DNA of 64,000 bases from Escherichia virus TH43. The notes beneath the pieces were generated by a model. That model ran no database searches and was not told where the DNA came from. It saw only the letters and a program-made list of their open reading frames with translations. Positions 4,501 through 62,200 of the stretch are shown here, piece after piece. The stretch is taken from sequence record MT446414.1; one strand, 5' to 3'. Numbering within the stretch: position 1 is the first letter of the stretch; each line of letters begins with the position of its first letter. A program made the translations under genes and the position numbers.

Positions 4501-5238
4501 ATGAATCGCAGAGAAACTCGTAGAGAAGCACGGAAAGCAGCTCGTCGTGGTGAACAGGTGACTAATAAAGGTAAACGTGAGTATCAAGAAGTTGTTCTTG
4601 CTAAGCCTGTAGTCCCTCAGAATCAGTTTCAATCCGAACTGCTCAATGCTATCAAGACTAAACAAGTAGTCTTTACGGATGCTCCTGCTGGCTGTGGTAA
4701 GACCTATGTTATCACAACAACAGTTATTGATGCTCTGAAAAGTGGAAAGATTCAAAAGATTATCCTAAGCCGGCCTGCTGTTGGTATGGGTAACTCACTT
4801 GGATTACTTCCCGGTGGATTGCGTGAGAAGTTCGAACCTTACCTGATGCCTATCGTTGATGTTATCACTCAGCGTTACGGTAAAGGCTTCTACGAGTGTC
4901 AAATTGGTAATGGTAACATAGAGTTCGTACCTCTGGAATACCTCCGTGGTCGTTCGTTCAATGATGCTATTGTGATTGTTGACGAGTTTCAGAACACCAC
5001 CCCTGATGAAGCATATTCTATTATGACTCGTCTTGGTGAAACCTCTCAGATGTTCTGTATGGGTGACACTAACCAGCACGACATGCGTGGTGAGAGTGGT
5101 TTGGAATGGGCTACTGACTTCATTGACAAGCACAACCTGTTTGAGTTTGCTGCTTTGGTTGATGGTGAGTCAGATGATATTGTTCGTTCAGGTTTCTGTA
5201 AAGCTATTGTTAAAGCAATGGAATCTGAAAAATCCTAA
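4501..5238 (+). CDS. phoH: PhoH-like ATPase
   Basis: Walker A GCGKTY; Walker B VIVDEFQN; PhoH-like LEYLRGRS block. Confidence 0.75.
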   Translation: MNRRETRREARKAARRGEQVTNKGKREYQEVVLAKPVVPQNQFQSELLNAIKTKQVVFTDAPAGCGKTYVITTTVIDALKSGKIQKIILSRPAVGMGNSLGLLPGGLREKFEPYLMPIVDVITQRYGKGFYECQIGNGNIEFVPLEYLRGRSFNDAIVIVDEFQNTTPDEAYSIMTRLGETSQMFCMGDTNQHDMRGESGLEWATDFIDKHNLFEFAALVDGESDDIVRSGFCKAIVKAMESEKS

Positions 5239-9928: not shown

Positions 9929-10104
9929 AGAAATACAGCGTATGGTTTAATGAAGAAGAAGAGGGTTTTGATGAAGTTGGTGGTTGGGTTAATATCCTAA
10001 ACACAGACGACATAGAAGAGGCCGAGAAATGCGCCCTAAACTACAACTCTGGATATTATGAAAGAAATTGGGAGCACGATGAAATACTACAAAGTAGTTT
10101 ATAA
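9925..10104 (+). CDS. small acidic protein; paralog of 10672..10839
   Basis: shared VW..E..E...GGW..IL.TDD.EEAE....NY.YYE. Confidence 0.45.
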   Translation: MKKYSVWFNEEEEGFDEVGGWVNILNTDDIEEAEKCALNYNSGYYERNWEHDEILQSSL

Positions 10105-10264
10105 GTTAAATTTATACCTTCGTGGAACAGGAAGTCTTGAAGTGTCAGGGTGTAAAGTTGTAGAAGAAGAAAACCCTATTAAAGCTGTTGAGAAGGTTGA
10201 AGAGATTATCAAACTTGAAGAAATAGGAAGTTTTGAATTAGTCGATATTGAGGAAGTTAAATGA
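10079..10264 (+). CDS. small acidic protein
   Basis: ORF track 10058..10264; internal ATG 10079. Confidence 0.4.
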   Translation: MKYYKVVYKLNLYLRGTGSLEVSGCKVVEEENPIKAVEKVEEIIKLEEIGSFELVDIEEVK

Positions 10265-25731: not shown

Positions 25732-26763
25732 TTATAGACCCGCAAAAACTTTAGCCGCATTTATTACCGGAATTGATATATTAATGGCAGAGTTAGAACC
25801 TAGGTCATAATTGGTAGACCACTGGAACATATACCTACCATAGCCAGTACCTATAGAAGATCCTGTCATTACATGAGATCTCATTTGCTGATAGTACCAA
25901 CCACTACCACTACCCCGAATAGCACCTACACCAGAGGAGAGTGGTATCATTGGGTATGCCATACCAGTATCACCTCCAGCAGAACCTACAAAATTATCAA
26001 CAGTAAAAGGTGTTCTATTAGTAGAGAACACACACTGAGTTGTTCCGGGAGAATAAATATTTAATCCACCATTGTGCTCAGGAACTCCTGCTCCATTACA
26101 GAATACTGCGACCCTAGCAAATACAGAACCGCCTTCGTTAGAGTTTCCGTTATTATAAGATCTGTTCTGATATACACGGATCACTCTATCTCCAGATGTA
26201 TAAGAAAGGCCAACCCCTCCGTCAGACCAGTTAGCAAAGACTACAGCATTAGGCATATAAAACCCACCAATGTCAGGAATCTGTAAAGCGCCGTTTATAG
26301 TCCCTTGCCAAGCCCAAATACACTGACCAACAACACCAGCATCAGAGATAGAGAAGTAATCAGCTGTATTAGAGAAGGTAATACCATAATTTCTGTCAGC
26401 TCTTGGGTAGATTTGGTAAACGTTAAACCCACAATCAAACAGGGGGTTACTTCCGGGATTCTGGTTTAAGTTAACTCTGAAAGAGGAGTTATTCTCTACA
26501 TAAATGTTATTAACACAATAAACATCAGGAACCAAGTTAGGAGGAACTTCCCACTGCCAGCACAGAGACCCAGTAGGGACGATAATTATCTGACCGCTAC
26601 CATCCCAACCATTAATAGGGAAAGATCTCCCACCCCCGTTAAAGTTGAAACTCCCACTAATAGAGTTCTTAATCTGAGGGAATGTACTCCCACTATCAAT
26701 AAACAAAGGAGCCGGAGAGGCTGGCCCCGGTCCTACAGGTTGACACCATATTCCATATGCCAT
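25732..26763 (-). CDS. tail protein (Gly/Asn-rich, beta-rich)
   Basis: position; composition. Confidence 0.45.
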   Translation of the reverse strand: MAYGIWCQPVGPGPASPAPLFIDSGSTFPQIKNSISGSFNFNGGGRSFPINGWDGSGQIIIVPTGSLCWQWEVPPNLVPDVYCVNNIYVENNSSFRVNLNQNPGSNPLFDCGFNVYQIYPRADRNYGITFSNTADYFSISDAGVVGQCIWAWQGTINGALQIPDIGGFYMPNAVVFANWSDGGVGLSYTSGDRVIRVYQNRSYNNGNSNEGGSVFARVAVFCNGAGVPEHNGGLNIYSPGTTQCVFSTNRTPFTVDNFVGSAGGDTGMAYPMIPLSSGVGAIRGSGSGWYYQQMRSHVMTGSSIGTGYGRYMFQWSTNYDLGSNSAINISIPVINAAKVFAGL

Positions 26764-26764
26764 A

Positions 26765-27787
26765 TTACCAACTCCCTATTCTAATTCTCAAAGCACCACC
26801 ACCGTCATAGAAATCAATCCTGTTACCATTCATCCACAGCTGTGCCCCACCTGTACCACCCATAACAAAATCCCCACCAACTGTAAGTCTCCAGTTAGAA
26901 CCACTCATAGAGCCAGCAGTAATCTTGTTAGCAGTAAGGTTAGCAATCTGTCCATCTTGAATCCACACGTTATCAATCTGAGCAAACTGGATTCGAGCAT
27001 TAGCAATCTGAGCAGTTGTAATGTTGACATTCTTGATATCAGCGAATTCCATTCTAGCTCTACCACCTTCAAAAACAAAAGGAGTATTACCAGAGTTGCC
27101 ATCACCAACAATAAACTTATTAGCCGTTACTTGGAATTGGCTGTTCGTGCCGTTGTTAGTTAGTTTAACACCAGCGTACTGACCATTAACAGAAGAGTTG
27201 ACACCCCATGTAGCTTCGTAACTATCTAGTCTCATGTATTGAGAAAGAGAGTTCTGTACAGTAGTAACCTTACCATCCACTTCGGCAATCTGAGTACCTT
27301 GAGCAGTAAGTTCTGTCTGAACTAAAGCAATCTCTTGTCCTTGTTCATTCACAATACCTTGTACTGTCTGAATCTTTAAATCATTACCTTCAATAGAAGT
27401 TTTGAAACCTGCAACTGTACCATCTAGTTTAGTCGGAGGGTTAGTGCTTCTATCCCAAATATCTTCAGTAGAAAGATTACCCATCTGTGTTTGGATATCA
27501 GCAATAGCTGTTTCAATCTCTGTAGTAATTCGGTTCTCAAGTTCATCAAACTGTAGGTTCATTGCATTAAGAGCTTTAATACGAACATCTATCTCTTCAT
27601 GAATCTCGTCGATTGCTTGGAACATCTGGTTAGTTGCTGTACTGACTTTCTGTAATTCATCATAAACTGCAACGTTGTATTTATCCGTATCCTCTACATT
27701 GTTTAGAAACCCAACGTTGTAGGGAAGTGTGGTGTTGTTTCTTCCAGTATTCTTACGAAAACCTCCAGCACCCATAAGTACCTCCAA
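26765..27787 (-). CDS. tail fibre-like protein
   Basis: N-terminal coiled coil then repetitive beta-rich region. Confidence 0.5.
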   Translation of the reverse strand: MEVLMGAGGFRKNTGRNNTTLPYNVGFLNNVEDTDKYNVAVYDELQKVSTATNQMFQAIDEIHEEIDVRIKALNAMNLQFDELENRITTEIETAIADIQTQMGNLSTEDIWDRSTNPPTKLDGTVAGFKTSIEGNDLKIQTVQGIVNEQGQEIALVQTELTAQGTQIAEVDGKVTTVQNSLSQYMRLDSYEATWGVNSSVNGQYAGVKLTNNGTNSQFQVTANKFIVGDGNSGNTPFVFEGGRARMEFADIKNVNITTAQIANARIQFAQIDNVWIQDGQIANLTANKITAGSMSGSNWRLTVGGDFVMGGTGGAQLWMNGNRIDFYDGGGALRIRIGSW

Positions 27788-55675: not shown

Positions 55676-55835
55676 GTTCACCACTGGTCACACTGTTCGC
55701 CTTGTTGGCGGTACTCAAACAGGTGTTATTCGTCGGAGAACAACGATTGATGGTGTTCTCTGTTATCTTGTTCAGTGGAATGGTGAATCCTCTCCTTCCT
55801 TCGAACGTCGTACTGATTTGGTGTTAATCAAATGA
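55644..55835 (+). CDS. small basic beta-rich protein
   Basis: ORF track 55473..55835; internal ATG. Confidence 0.4.
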   Translation: MRKQRMRSRVKFTTGHTVRLVGGTQTGVIRRRTTIDGVLCYLVQWNGESSPSFERRTDLVLIK

Positions 55836-56062
55836 AAATTAATCTCCCATCTTTAGTTGTTACTAAAAAGCTCAGCGATCTACGTCCGGGTGATGTATTC
55901 CGTCTACCAACTAACTCTGAACACCTCTATCTAAAGACAGACACCTGCCTGAATGATATGCATCGTGTGGTTGGTCTTCGTCAGGGAACACTATTCCAGT
56001 TACAGGAACATCATGAAGTTATCCCTGTATTTGATGTTCAAGTGACTAATATTGGTGGTTAA
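55832..56062 (+). CDS. small protein, PGDxF paralog family
   Basis: LSDLRPGDVFRL motif. Confidence 0.5.
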   Translation: MKINLPSLVVTKKLSDLRPGDVFRLPTNSEHLYLKTDTCLNDMHRVVGLRQGTLFQLQEHHEVIPVFDVQVTNIGG

Positions 56063-56287
56063 ATGAAGATTGACATTGATAGTACGCCAGAGGTTGTAAC
56101 TCTCGGAGACCTAAATCCGGGTGAAGTCTTCCAGTTTAACTACAATGAAACTCAATACTACATGCGTACTGCGTGTTATGGTGAAAACAAAAGTTATTTT
56201 GTTAACCTTTATACAGGTAAGCGTGATTCTGAGTGTAAATCGACTGTAGTCAGACCTGTACCTAACGCACAACTAACCAACAAGTAA
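56063..56287 (+). CDS. small protein, PGDxF paralog family
   Basis: LGDLNPGEVFQF motif. Confidence 0.5.
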   Translation: MKIDIDSTPEVVTLGDLNPGEVFQFNYNETQYYMRTACYGENKSYFVNLYTGKRDSECKSTVVRPVPNAQLTNK

Positions 56288-57222: not shown

Positions 57223-57474
57223 GTGTTCAATCGTTTATTTGACCGTAAAGGTCGCACTGACATACTGATACCTTCTATCGGTGTGCCAGCTAAGTTCGGT
57301 GAGATACGTGCTGGTGACTTCTTCATGGAATCAGGTCGTCTTCATCTGAAGATCAACCTCGATCACGCTGTTGAAATCCTCAGTGATGATAAGCCAATCA
57401 TCGGCACTTCGGTGTACAGTGCAAACCATACTGTATTTGTTGTCAATGTTCAGATTGAGATTAAATCACCATGA
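57223..57474 (+). CDS. small protein, PGDxF paralog family (GTG start)
   Basis: FGEIRAGDFFM motif. Confidence 0.45.
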   Translation: MFNRLFDRKGRTDILIPSIGVPAKFGEIRAGDFFMESGRLHLKINLDHAVEILSDDKPIIGTSVYSANHTVFVVNVQIEIKSP

Positions 57475-57728
57475 AGACAAACTTCCGAGCAGCAGTTATT
57501 ACGAAAGTAATAGCAGTTGGCGATGTAATGATGCAGGTTCCTCTGAACACTCGTTACATTGCCATTGACCGAATGGGTTATGTGTGGGCTTGGAAGTGGA
57601 AGCCTACTTATAACGAACTGTTCGACGAATACCAGTGCGCTGGACCTTACATGCCAACCTTAATCGGTGTGTATGAAGATGGTCCTTGTCGTACTCCTCA
57701 GTTAATCGAACTACCGGCGTGTGCTTAA
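57471..57728 (+). CDS. hypothetical protein
   Basis: ORF track. Confidence 0.45.
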   Translation: MKTNFRAAVITKVIAVGDVMMQVPLNTRYIAIDRMGYVWAWKWKPTYNELFDEYQCAGPYMPTLIGVYEDGPCRTPQLIELPACA

Positions 57729-57729
57729 T

Positions 57730-57891
57730 ATGATTAAGTGGCTAAAGCGTGTCTTCCATTGTCATGATTGGAAGATTATTAACACCCGTCCTCTGGTCTA
57801 TACAGATTCAGATGGGAACAATGACAAGGGCACACGTTACGTTATTCAGTGTAAGGTGTGTGGTGATGTTAGTCATCGTGATGTAATCTAA
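57730..57891 (+). CDS. small zinc-ribbon protein, tandem paralog A (53 aa)
   Basis: manual translation MIKWLKRVFHCHDW...CKVCG. Confidence 0.4.
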   Translation: MIKWLKRVFHCHDWKIINTRPLVYTDSDGNNDKGTRYVIQCKVCGDVSHRDVI

Positions 57892-57900
57892 GGAATCATT

Positions 57901-58065
57901 ATGATTAAATGGTTCAAACGTCTATTTCATTTCCATGAGTGGGAAGATCTTTCTACTTATGAACTGACGATCACAAATAAACTTACTGACAGAGAGCGAC
58001 AAGGGTTGCGTATCTACTCTCGCTGTAAAGTGTGTGGTCTGCACAAGAAAACAGACCTGATTTAA
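57901..58065 (+). CDS. small zinc-ribbon protein, tandem paralog B (54 aa)
   Basis: manual translation MIKWFKRLFHFHEW...CKVCG. Confidence 0.4.
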   Translation: MIKWFKRLFHFHEWEDLSTYELTITNKLTDRERQGLRIYSRCKVCGLHKKTDLI

Positions 58066-58317: not shown

Positions 58318-58740
58318 TTGAAGATAGAGTTAGAATACCCCTTCGTTAATGACTGGCGATTGGGCTACTTAAGAACAAGCAGAGACGGTAGGAAGCGTGT
58401 TGATTTGTATAATACCGACACGGAGAGGACAACCATTTCTTACGCAAGATATTTAATGTCTTGTCACATAGGCAGGTACCTAACTGAAGACGAGGAGGTT
58501 GATCATATTGACAGAAATAAAACTAATGATGACATATCTAATCTTCAGATACTTTCCATAGAAAATCACAGAAAGAAGTCAACATTAGAAGCAACTACTG
58601 GAAGAACAATGATTTCAGTTGTTTGCTCTTATTGTGGAAGATCTTTTGAAAAAGAAAAGCGAAATGTTAAATATGCAAATTCTTTTTGTAACAGATCATG
58701 TGCAGGTAAGTATAACGGTTTCAAATCTATCGGGGCGTAG
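58318..58740 (+). CDS. HNH homing-endonuclease-like protein
   Basis: EEVDHIDRNKTNDDISNLQILSIENHRKK HNH motif. Confidence 0.55.
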   Translation: MKIELEYPFVNDWRLGYLRTSRDGRKRVDLYNTDTERTTISYARYLMSCHIGRYLTEDEEVDHIDRNKTNDDISNLQILSIENHRKKSTLEATTGRTMISVVCSYCGRSFEKEKRNVKYANSFCNRSCAGKYNGFKSIGA

Positions 58741-58806
58741 TCTAGTGGAACAGGCAGCGAGCTTCTAACTCGCCTTACGAGGGTTCGAATCCTTCCGTCC
58801 CGACCA
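58731..58806 (+). tRNA. tRNA-Arg (anticodon TCT)
   Basis: hand-folded 76 nt cloverleaf: 7 bp acceptor, D-loop with GG, anticodon loop CTTCTAA, T-loop TTCGAAT, encoded CCA. Confidence 0.8.
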
Positions 58807-58951
58807 ATTTTAAACAAGGGCTAGTATGGGTACGGCACCAGAGTTAGTGTATCCCTGTTGAGGCAAGTGCTTTTATAACAGTGGGAATTGCTTTCTTAGT
58901 GAGCTTCTGGTTCGATTCCAGATAGTCCACCAAATCAAATAGGAGGTGCTT

Positions 58952-59278
58952 ATGAGTTGGGGTGGTGTAATTACCTTAACCTGTATCTTTATCGCCTGTG
59001 TAGCTCTTACAGGCTGCGTACAGCATCGTCCTGATGGATGGTGTGCATTATCGGTAGAAGGTGTCTGTGTTTCCCGTTGGCATAGCGGGGAGAAGATTCC
59101 TAGTGGTGAAATTGATATGCGTTATGCTGGTGCTTCTTGTTCCAATGGCGGTGCTGTTGACGAGAAGGCTTATGCAAAGCGTGATATGGCTACCCAAGGT
59201 GATTGGTCACGTTATGACTTCATCTCCCGTGGTGAGCTGTGTGGTGGCTCTGTGACAACAACAGGTAAGGAGTGGTGA
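58952..59278 (+). CDS. lipoprotein (lipobox LTGC), Cys-rich
   Basis: signal peptide with lipobox ALTGC; RBS AGGAGG 5 nt upstream. Confidence 0.5.
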   Translation: MSWGGVITLTCIFIACVALTGCVQHRPDGWCALSVEGVCVSRWHSGEKIPSGEIDMRYAGASCSNGGAVDEKAYAKRDMATQGDWSRYDFISRGELCGGSVTTTGKEW

Positions 59279-59279
59279 T

Positions 59280-59534
59280 ATGTCCGGTCATTATTCTGAT
59301 ACGAAAGCTCTACTTGAAACAGCGGCTCAAACTTCATGCCAACAGCAAGTAAAAATGCTGTTGGTTGATATCCGTAATCTTCGTTGGCTTATTAAAGAAG
59401 GTCATCTCGGTAACGCTGCCTATTACAACGTTAAAGATATCCTTCGCCGCCAGCACTTTCTTATCCACGGAAACGTGGTAACTCGCAACTATCAATGGAA
59501 CGGTGAATGGTTACAGCAGCGTATGTCCTCCTGA
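59280..59534 (+). CDS. hypothetical protein
   Basis: ORF track. Confidence 0.45.
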   Translation: MSGHYSDTKALLETAAQTSCQQQVKMLLVDIRNLRWLIKEGHLGNAAYYNVKDILRRQHFLIHGNVVTRNYQWNGEWLQQRMSS

Positions 59535-59761
59535 TTTATGTTATTGGTTGGTGGTTGGCAGCCATTGTAGTTAAATGGTGCTTCAAAACCAATACACTCT
59601 ACAACTTCTTCCATTCCTCATGGAGTGGTAAGCCTGATGAATACTCTATTTGGACGGTGATATTCTTCTGGCCTTTTATGCTGATCTTTATCCTCTTCTT
59701 ACCTTTACTTATGTTGATAGGCTGGGTAATGGATAAGGTGACAGTCTTTATTACTAAGTAA
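59507..59761 (+). CDS. small membrane protein (2-3 TM helices)
   Basis: hydrophobic segments. Confidence 0.45.
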   Translation: MVTAAYVLLIYVIGWWLAAIVVKWCFKTNTLYNFFHSSWSGKPDEYSIWTVIFFWPFMLIFILFLPLLMLIGWVMDKVTVFITK

Positions 59762-60305: not shown

Positions 60306-60560
60306 ATGAAAGTTAACATGCCAGCAGGTAAAAATTCAATACCCCTCAGTGCTTTGCGACTTGGGGATTGCTTCATGTACCCTAACAGTGAAGATGGTGA
60401 TTTGTACATCTTACTGTCTACCGAGTTCTCAACTCGCTTGTGCATTAAGGGTGCGGACGAGCACAGACTTGTAGCCTGTCTTAACACAGGCCGAGCGACA
60501 GCGCCTCGTAAAGATGTTGCTGTTATTCCTATTAAAGCTGAAGCAATTATTAAGGAATAA
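60306..60560 (+). CDS. small protein, PGDxF paralog family
   Basis: LSALRLGDCFMY motif. Confidence 0.5.
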   Translation: MKVNMPAGKNSIPLSALRLGDCFMYPNSEDGDLYILLSTEFSTRLCIKGADEHRLVACLNTGRATAPRKDVAVIPIKAEAIIKE

Positions 60561-61715: not shown

Positions 61716-61949
61716 ATGTCTAAAGTTAGCGCAATTGATGCCATCCGCCAGCCGTTCCAGTTCCAGTCCAAATCAACCCAAACCTTCAGCGAACCTCGCC
61801 AGATTCGTCTGGGCGGCACAGAGAAATCTGTGTTTGATATTGCGAAAAATAAAAGCGTGACCATCGTCGAAGGTGGTGAGCTGGTTAATGTTTCCCATCG
61901 TATCCGCACTGGTAAAACTGCCAAAGATCGTGCTAAGAAAGGTCTGTAA
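61716..61949 (+). CDS. hypothetical protein
   Basis: ORF track. Confidence 0.45.
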   Translation: MSKVSAIDAIRQPFQFQSKSTQTFSEPRQIRLGGTEKSVFDIAKNKSVTIVEGGELVNVSHRIRTGKTAKDRAKKGL

Positions 61950-62200
61950 TGCAAATTGCTAATAAAACCCCTCCTGAATCAATTATCCAAGTAAAGGATA
62001 TGTCACCGGGAGATGTATTTCGTGCAACGGAATATCCGGGGGATTTCTTTATTCGAATCCCCTCAGCATCTGTTGGTGGTATCGCTAAACCGGTAACAGC
62101 AGTTCAGCTAAGTACGGGTCATCTCTTCCGTTTAGAGATTGATATGATTGTGATTCCTGTTCCAACAGCAATCCTCCGCTTCGACGGAGCCACAGAGTAA
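61949..62200 (+). CDS. small protein, PGDxF paralog family
   Basis: KDMSPGDVFRA motif. Confidence 0.5.
   Translation: MQIANKTPPESIIQVKDMSPGDVFRATEYPGDFFIRIPSASVGGIAKPVTAVQLSTGHLFRLEIDMIVIPVPTAILRFDGATE

Follow-up and report, generated by a model that had tools for sequence, protein, structure and literature searches.

What does a small lipoprotein made by a phage do in its host and, if it closes a receptor, which receptor is it? The question is raised by a gene at positions 58952-59278 (+ strand) of a 64,000-nucleotide stretch of Escherichia virus TH43 (sequence record MT446414.1), analysed as a whole and called the window here. The window DNA matches E. coli podoviruses of the subfamily Gordonclarkvirinae (phiEco32, SU10, ECBP2 group). 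The first-pass annotation of this DNA described the gene product as an early-region lipoprotein with a lipobox and a cysteine-rich mature part, and proposed it as a candidate for receptor masking in the manner of T5 Llp and phi80 Cor. Our analysis suggests, with a probability of roughly 0.72, that it is an outer-membrane lipoprotein of the Rtp45 family, made from the early block, that binds the lipopolysaccharide (LPS) translocon LptDE from the periplasm and stops LptD-dependent adsorption. This reading is drawn by homology with Rtp45, the homologue in siphovirus Rtp for which a complex with LptDE has been solved.

The open reading frame (ORF) begins with ATG at 58952-58954 and ends with TGA at 59276-59278 (108 codons), and a Shine-Dalgarno sequence, AGGAGG, was read from the sequence at 58941-58946 (+), 5 nucleotides before the ATG. 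The prolipoprotein of 108 amino acids scored 123.4 bits against Pfam PF24052 'Phage_lipoprotein' (cut-off 27) over profile positions 1-80 of 80, and matched phrog_4281 (E=2.3e-34). A tblastn search found the family in 388 phage records, about 100 of which are Gordonclarkvirinae; the others include Weberviruses of Klebsiella and a large number of small siphoviruses of E. coli and Shigella (such as Rtp, Dhillonvirus and Hanrivervirus). The Pfam score and the presence of homologues in 388 phage records identify the ORF as a real gene and not a chance one. ECBP2 encodes an identical protein (ECBP2_0100, 100%) and TH34 an orthologue with 98% identity, and the orthologues phi32_106 and SU10_0104 are both annotated as 'putative lipoprotein'. 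Since a word-indexed homologue search reached close relatives only, a profile search was used for the wider family; among 5.8 billion proteins it returned 93 clusters, all with PF24052 and none with a longest contig above about 100 kilobases (kb).

An alignment of 94 family members was the basis for the conservation counts of the lipoprotein. The N-terminus reads MSWGGVITLTCIFIACVALTG and continues after the predicted cleavage site with CVQH; the signal peptide (residues 1-21; 58952-59014, +) consists of a hydrophobic core followed by the lipobox L19-T20-G21-C22 (59006-59017, +). Glycine 21 is kept in 92 and cysteine 22 in 93 of the 94 members, and the mature lipoprotein is predicted to start with Cys22 (codon 59015-59017), carrying the lipid. 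The residue after it, the +2 residue, is S, A, V, T, I or Y across the family (valine in this lipoprotein) and never aspartic acid; hence the inner-membrane retention signal is missing, which fits sorting to the outer membrane. Besides the lipid-anchor Cys22, the mature part contains C31, C39, C63 and C97. The gene itself, its lipobox and its cysteine-rich mature part were thus all borne out as first described.

Comparison with proteins of known structure placed the lipoprotein next to Rtp45. A phmmer search against all PDB chains (threshold E<=10) gave one significant match, 9RPS_D (Rtp45), with E=1.4e-15 over residues 6-70. The alignment spans the signal peptide, RPDGWC-x7-C, W/K-x-G and P-x-G-E-x-D-x-R-Y-x-G; the C-terminal G-S-V-x-x-x-G-K-E-W is also common to both proteins, so the homology with Rtp45 runs end to end. 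Identity over the alignable mature residues is 46% to Rtp45 and 37-45% to the Oekolampad-type branch, and these two are 31-43% identical to each other; the core of the lipoprotein is related to Rtp45 as closely as one LptD-type siphovirus branch is to the other. This conserved core (residues 22-60; 59015-59131, +), delimited with phmmer, alignments and predicted strands, contains RPDGWC31...GVC39, a counterpart of the strand by which Rtp45 pairs with LptD residues 318-323, and the ascending hairpin strand PSGEIDMRY. In the alignment C31 and C39, each present in 93 of the 94 members, correspond to the cysteines of the Cys30-Cys38 disulphide in Rtp45. The conserved C-terminal strand GSVTTTGKEW (59246-59275, +), recognised from alignments and the predicted model, is the descending hairpin strand, and its last two residues, E107 and W108, are nearly invariant among the homologues.

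An AlphaFold2 (AF2) model built from the 94-sequence alignment (predicted local distance difference test, pLDDT, 82) contains strands at residues 31-35, 38-44, 47-50, 52-65 and 95-107, of which 52-65 and 95-107 form a long hairpin with a low-confidence tip loop. A Foldseek search of this model against the PDB gave 9RPS_D as the sole meaningful match (probability 1.0; template modelling, TM, score 0.78 normalised to the target), the rest being noise. The protein therefore has a family hidden Markov model (HMM) score above threshold, a lipobox without aspartic acid at +2, the conserved cysteine pair and the predicted hairpin. Its gene does not lie directly upstream of a receptor-binding protein (RBP) gene at a gpJ locus, as in the examined E. 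coli siphoviruses; the RBP homologue described below is 32 kb away. Position next to an RBP gene belongs to the gene context and not to the protein, and on its sequence the lipoprotein is classed as an Rtp45-family member whose lineage has a loop of its own and whose gene is split from that of the RBP.

Kinship with the two lipoproteins named in the first-pass annotation was rejected. Apart from 9RPS_D, the PDB-wide phmmer search gave only lysozymes at E 0.3-0.4, taken as chance, and the PDB presumably holds an Llp chain, in view of the FhuA-Llp structural study (PMC9586334) cited by others. For Cor, BLASTP gave no match at E<=100 and an HMM of the mature part alone scored 0.1 bits against T1 Cor; a weak full-length HMM match to Cor stems from the signal peptide. 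The analogy with Llp and Cor consequently stands as a likeness of function and falls as one of sequence, as no match was found to Llp or to mature T1 Cor. Receptor masking itself gained support, from homology to the exclusion lipoprotein Rtp45 seen with LptDE by cryo-electron microscopy (cryo-EM) and not from any Llp or Cor relationship. Because of the Rtp45 homology and the missing match to Llp or mature Cor, the predicted target is LptDE and not FhuA.

Wietzorrek and colleagues are said to have reported in 2006 that cloned rtp45 gives resistance to Rtp. Rtp45 co-purifies with Shigella LptDE (PNAS 2025 / bioRxiv 10.1101/2025.07.07.663478), and in the cryo-EM structure it lies between LptE and LptM, where the outer membrane meets the periplasm. 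Its residues 30-35 form a beta-sheet with LptD 318-323, it contains a Cys30-Cys38 disulphide, and its long hairpin rises through the LptD lumen and shifts extracellular loop 4 by up to 20 Å; the resulting LptD conformation is incompatible with binding of an LptD-directed RBP (bioRxiv 10.1101/2025.07.07.663478). LptD was identified as the terminal receptor of these siphoviruses by Maffei et al. (2021). By homology with the Rtp45-LptDE complex, the TH43 protein would be made from the early block and, once exported and lipidated at Cys22, would be delivered to the outer membrane's inner leaflet, where it would dock on the periplasmic rim of LptDE. At the base of the LptD barrel it would contribute an added beta-strand, and it would push its long beta-hairpin up into the lumen; displacement of extracellular loop 4 would then keep an LptD-directed RBP from binding. 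The predicted effect is superinfection exclusion, together with the sparing of progeny from the debris of lysed cells.

The hairpin tip is where the TH43 protein departs from Rtp45. Alignments revealed a lineage-specific insertion of residues 61-98 (59132-59245, +), a loop bracketed by Cys63 and Cys97, so that 38 residues separate G60 from G99 compared with 5 in Rtp45. Short-loop members have 5-11 residues here, save two with a single residue, and all examined siphovirus homologues are of this kind. Long loops have 13 to 38 residues and take in all examined Gordonclarkvirinae variants. Exactly two loop cysteines were found in all 18 members with a loop of at least 13 residues; the C63/C97 equivalents always occur as a pair and are confined to the long-loop members (0 of 75 short-loop members), one further short-loop member (9 residues) having a single loop cysteine. 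We infer that a C63-C97 disulphide staples the insertion at the hairpin tip, so that in this lineage the tip would bear an additional disulphide-stapled loop.

The siphoviruses indicate what a partner directed at LptD may look like. Four of them, Rtp, TheodorHerzl, pSf-1 and SO-1, carry the lipoprotein gene directly upstream of a gene for an Rtp44/RBP_Oeko-type protein of about 315 amino acids, and the pair adjoins the J-like tail-tip gene. An HMM built from these four siphovirus RBPs was searched against all six-frame ORFs of the window and matched a single one, at 25732-26763 (-), with E=2.3e-20 over profile positions 28-311 of 317. The encoded 343-residue protein matched PDB 9RPT_C (RBP_Oeko bound to open LptDE) with E=1e-12 and Pfam PF20051 (DUF6453) with E=2.4e-25 (89.9 bits, cut-off 25). 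Its AF2 model (pLDDT 86.7; predicted TM score, pTM, 0.88) gave 9RPT_C as the top Foldseek match (E=2.4e-13, TM 0.82), with nothing else below E=0.05. The siphovirus and Gordonclarkvirinae RBP members have in common an N-terminal MAxGI(Y/W), in which M1, G4 and I5 are invariant. The family HMM, the fold match to 9RPT_C and this N-terminal motif together place the protein in the DUF6453/Rtp44 family.

The protein at 25732-26763 is the orthologue of SU10_019 (gp19; 87% identical), and its gene is flanked by the genes for the tail needle (gp18) and the ejection protein (gp20). Across Gordonclarkvirinae, conservation of gp19 is about 80% over the N-terminal 30 residues and the body is variable, which is the usual pattern for an anchored receptor-binding protein. 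In databases this ORF type is labelled 'membrane protein' or 'hypothetical', and PHROGs lists it as a moron (phrog_1265). The neighbouring tail needle gene (26765-27775, -; SU10 gp18 orthologue, 85% identical) encodes a coiled coil followed by a C-terminal lambda-J / siphovirus tail-tip domain (PF09327, E=1.6e-25). By BLASTP the needle aligns with the J-like proteins of Rtp, TheodorHerzl, pSf-1 and SO-1 at about their residues 868-1080, and its extreme C-terminus is similar to theirs. Siphovirus RBPs of the LptD type have been suggested to attach at the J-type C-terminal region, and from these sequences the needle is likely the docking site of the gp19-type protein.

Since the phage has an LptD-type RBP homologue at its needle, masking of its own terminal receptor is the simplest reading. 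The gp19-type protein is accordingly the predicted partner whose receptor the lipoprotein would mask, and it is plausible from the sequences that the masked receptor is the phage's own; LptD would in that case be the terminal receptor of the group. The wider proposal, that Gordonclarkvirinae carry a siphovirus-type module of tail-tip domain, DUF6453 RBP and Rtp45-like lipoprotein split between the tail and early regions, with LptD as terminal receptor through gp19 on the needle tip and the lipoprotein, its hairpin tip enlarged and disulphide-stapled, shutting LptD from the periplasm, stands at about even odds in our estimate. The literature search brought up no paper that links LptD with Gordonclarkvirinae, Kuravirus, phiEco32 or SU10; the Pseudomonas N4-like phage DEV provides a recent precedent for the use of LptD by a podovirus.

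The distribution of the two genes was compared across phages. Homologues of the lipoprotein and of gp19 each occur in about 100 Gordonclarkvirinae records, and FhuA-dependent T1, used as a negative control, has neither PF24052 nor DUF6453. Metagenomic contigs of about 48-100 kb (L010-L012) encode an 87-residue PF24052 lipoprotein at 10001-10264, near the start of the early block, and the 100-kb contigs with the lipoprotein also carry an SU10-like portal. A gp19-like protein (P0213) is probably on the same contig, the one ground for this being that the longest contig is equal (100,570). In Klebsiella phage vB_KpnS-VAC11 (Webervirus) an Rtp45-like lipoprotein gene lies at 4995-5222, between a resolvase gene and dam, and the DUF6453 homologue (record positions 41-862) is about 10 kb away; the genes are thus split as in TH43, and VAC11 hints that Klebsiella siphoviruses may also use LptD as a receptor.

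Several observations weigh against an LptD-plugging lipoprotein that masks the phage's own receptor, and these are gathered here with the explanations that they favour. In the lipoprotein, the n-region of the signal peptide contains neither lysine nor arginine, which is unusual and not disqualifying. AlphaFold predictions of Rtp45 itself were reported to be poor, and AlphaFold3 complex predictions to be wrong even for Rtp45 (bioRxiv 10.1101/2025.07.07.663478); because of this warning from the authors of the Rtp45 structure, our AF2 model of the lipoprotein is taken as supportive only. The equivalent hairpin tip of Rtp45 enters the LptD lumen (bioRxiv 10.1101/2025.07.07.663478), and a 38-residue loop at this functionally critical place could alter the target or the binding mode. 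The fold may then have been kept and the target changed, to another outer-membrane protein or to some other function in the envelope, for example interference with the export of LPS or O-antigen. Such a change would also agree with the low identity (only about 28%) between the gp19-type protein and the proven LptD binders, whose receptor it may not share, and with O-antigen, the primary receptor of Gordonclarkvirinae phages, being exported through LptD. We hold it to be very unlikely, as the disulphide pair, the strand aligning with Rtp45 30-35, PxGExDxRY and KEW are all conserved, and as the core lies no further from Rtp45 than the LptD-type siphovirus branches lie from each other. The family moreover accompanies an LptD-type RBP in every examined siphovirus, T1 having neither. 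The variation in loop length from 13 to 38 residues among long-loop members, including the Gordonclarkvirinae clade, suggests that the loop is tolerant rather than specificity-defining.

The remaining objections concern the link between the lipoprotein and gp19. SU10 gp19 (CDS19) is absent from the 34 proteins of the published virion mass spectrometry, a negative that is not decisive since a low copy number is expected, and it goes unmentioned in the SU10 cryo-EM structure paper. The lipoprotein gene is 32 kb from the RBP homologue, unlike the adjacent genes of the examined E. coli siphoviruses. Lipoprotein and gp19 alleles showed no co-variation (rho=0.23, p=0.35, n=19). ECBP2 has an identical lipoprotein and a gp19 only 46% identical, and the 25732-26763 protein is 100% identical to that of TH34; with the lipoprotein of ECBP2 and the gp19 of TH34 in one phage, the RBP locus at the tail needle is mosaic within the genus. 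Missing co-variation is neutral if both proteins bind conserved LptD on opposite faces, and it lends no positive support. In the current view of entry, long tail fibres recognise O-antigen and short tail fibres the LPS core, terminal recognition now being assigned to the latter. On these grounds the lipoprotein could block LptD solely against competing LptD-dependent siphoviruses, the phage's own entry being LptD-free and gp19 a non-virion protein or one with another target. We regard this as unlikely, though less so than a changed target. The gp19 homologue is kept in the roughly 100 Gordonclarkvirinae records counted above, the lipoprotein also occurs in 100-kb SU10-like relatives, and the gp19 gene is flanked by tail-needle and ejection-protein genes. 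Its anchor-like N-terminal segment and variable body are typical of receptor-binding proteins, and the needle bears the J-type domain suggested for RBP attachment in siphoviruses.

The placement of the gene in an early region, also part of the first description, holds by position. Replication and middle genes occupy 1-15.4 kb (+) of the window and the late structural operon 16.7-47 kb (-); the lipoprotein gene is among the small co-oriented ORFs of about 47-64 kb (+), a block that runs divergently from the late operon. In phiEco32 the equivalent block has been defined by experiment as the early class, with transcription running against that of the late genes (PMC8948821), and it is by synteny with this block only that the lipoprotein gene is called early. 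A consensus scan for sigma-70-like sites found no convincing promoter just upstream of the gene, and such sites were scarcer than in shuffled sequence; the gene probably belongs to a long early transcript. The 'terminator' predicted at 58956-58980 falls within the lipoprotein ORF and is probably an artefact. The downstream ORF begins at 59280, 2 nucleotides past the lipoprotein stop. Upstream, and given for context only, a tRNA-Arg(TCT) gene is found at 58731-58806 (+), a position 5' of the lipoprotein gene that is kept in phiEco32 and ECBP2.

This setting also bears on a role in lysis. A small outer-membrane lipoprotein may be an o-spanin or u-spanin, and the family member of phage Chapo is labelled 'u-spanin' in GenBank. 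The TH43 protein has no C-terminal transmembrane segment and ends in a hydrophilic ...TTTGKEW; its gene is in the early block, where the neighbours (HNH endonuclease, tRNA and small early ORFs) match no lysis family and no i-spanin, holin or endolysin is adjacent; and the structure of its homologue Rtp45 shows an LptDE binder. A spanin role was rejected on gene context and the missing transmembrane helix, and we give it almost no credence.

Other features were observed around the gene. An HNH homing-endonuclease ORF (58318-58740, +; phrog_14913, E=4e-55) enters the start of the tRNA-Arg gene (58731) with its 3' end, and seems to be a recent insertion because ECBP2 and phiEco32 carry only small ORFs there. 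A tRNA-like remnant lies between tRNA-Arg and the lipoprotein gene at about 58812-58935 (+), especially 58867-58932, with a T-arm GGTTCGATTCC and an acceptor-like end ...GTCCACCA; the ECBP2 annotation places a 46-residue ORF over it. A second tRNA was rejected at this place, as there was no Rfam match and ARAGORN called it, as a degenerate tRNA-Arg(tct), only at a relaxed threshold. The second gene 3' of the lipoprotein gene is an 84-residue ORF (59507-59761, +) that overlaps the end of the ORF in between; it has hydrophobic stretches resembling two or three transmembrane segments and no family match. Elsewhere in the block, five paralogous early proteins of about 75-85 amino acids (55832-56062, 56063-56287, 57223-57474, 60306-60560 and 61949-62200, all +) have an N-terminal 'L..L.PGD.F' motif in common (pairwise BLASTP E 1e-3 to 4e-8). 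Two adjacent paralogues of about 55 amino acids (57721-57891 and 57901-58065, +; 41% identical, E=1.5e-12) show an H-x-H/W ... C-K-V-C-G pattern and are possibly small zinc-binding proteins.

About 100 Kuravirus-like genomes carry the gene under no other label than 'hypothetical' or 'putative lipoprotein', and homology to a solved complex now allows a probable target and mechanism to be assigned to it. The interest of the finding comes chiefly from the receptor prediction: together, the lipoprotein and the overlooked gp19 gene predict LptD as the terminal receptor of Gordonclarkvirinae. LptD is essential, highly conserved and of interest for phage steering, and Gordonclarkvirinae are widely isolated and have been proposed for therapy against avian pathogenic (APEC), uropathogenic (UPEC) and Shiga toxin-producing (STEC) E. 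coli. If true, the prediction revises the entry model of a therapeutically used group, in which long fibres bind O-antigen and short fibres the LPS core, and adds a second structural variant of LptD plugging, the loop insertion being a natural variant for studying how LptD is plugged from the periplasm. The case illustrates the movement of a receptor-recognition and exclusion module between siphoviruses and podoviruses.

Comparison with known exclusion systems revealed different degrees of likeness. Cor of T1, phi80 and N15, which acts in FhuA exclusion, is likewise a small exclusion lipoprotein with a similar signal peptide, but its mature part is unrelated. T5 Llp follows the same logic, being a small early lipoprotein on the periplasmic face of the receptor that prevents RBP binding; however, no sequence similarity to it was detectable in the PDB-wide search, its target is the TonB-dependent transporter FhuA, and it acts by long-range allostery whereas the Rtp45 type acts by steric displacement of a loop. 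SE_Oeko (bas18_0026), SO-1 gp24 and pSf-1 gp84 of the LptD-dependent Dhillonvirus and Hanrivervirus belong to the same Pfam family as the TH43 lipoprotein and have the same layout at 37-45% identity, but carry NG(D/E)C in place of RPDGWC and a short loop; the TH43 lipoprotein is nearer to the branch of Rtp45 and the Weberviruses.

On the partner side, the 25732-26763 protein resembles Rtp44/RBP_Oeko (9RPT_C) in full-length homology, a predicted fold of two beta-sandwiches (TM 0.82) and the MAxGI(Y/W) motif. It differs in being only about 28% identical and in that its gene follows a podovirus tail-needle gene, whereas the Rtp44/RBP_Oeko genes lie opposite the J-like tail-tip gene in siphoviruses; Rtp44 and RBP_Oeko are proven LptD binders, and the TH43 homologue is a presumed virion protein. 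Rtp45 (9RPS_D) remains the closest known counterpart of the lipoprotein. The TH43 protein has a 38-residue Cys63...Cys97 loop where Rtp45 has a 5-residue turn, its signal peptide lacks a basic n-region, and its gene lies in a podovirus early block 32 kb from the RBP homologue, whereas that of Rtp45 is directly upstream of the RBP gene and next to gpJ. Both proteins have the lipobox, the RPDGWC...GVC pair, the PxGExDxRY and GSV..KEW strands and a long beta-hairpin (predicted in TH43), their alignable mature residues are 46% identical, and 9RPS_D is the top structural match.

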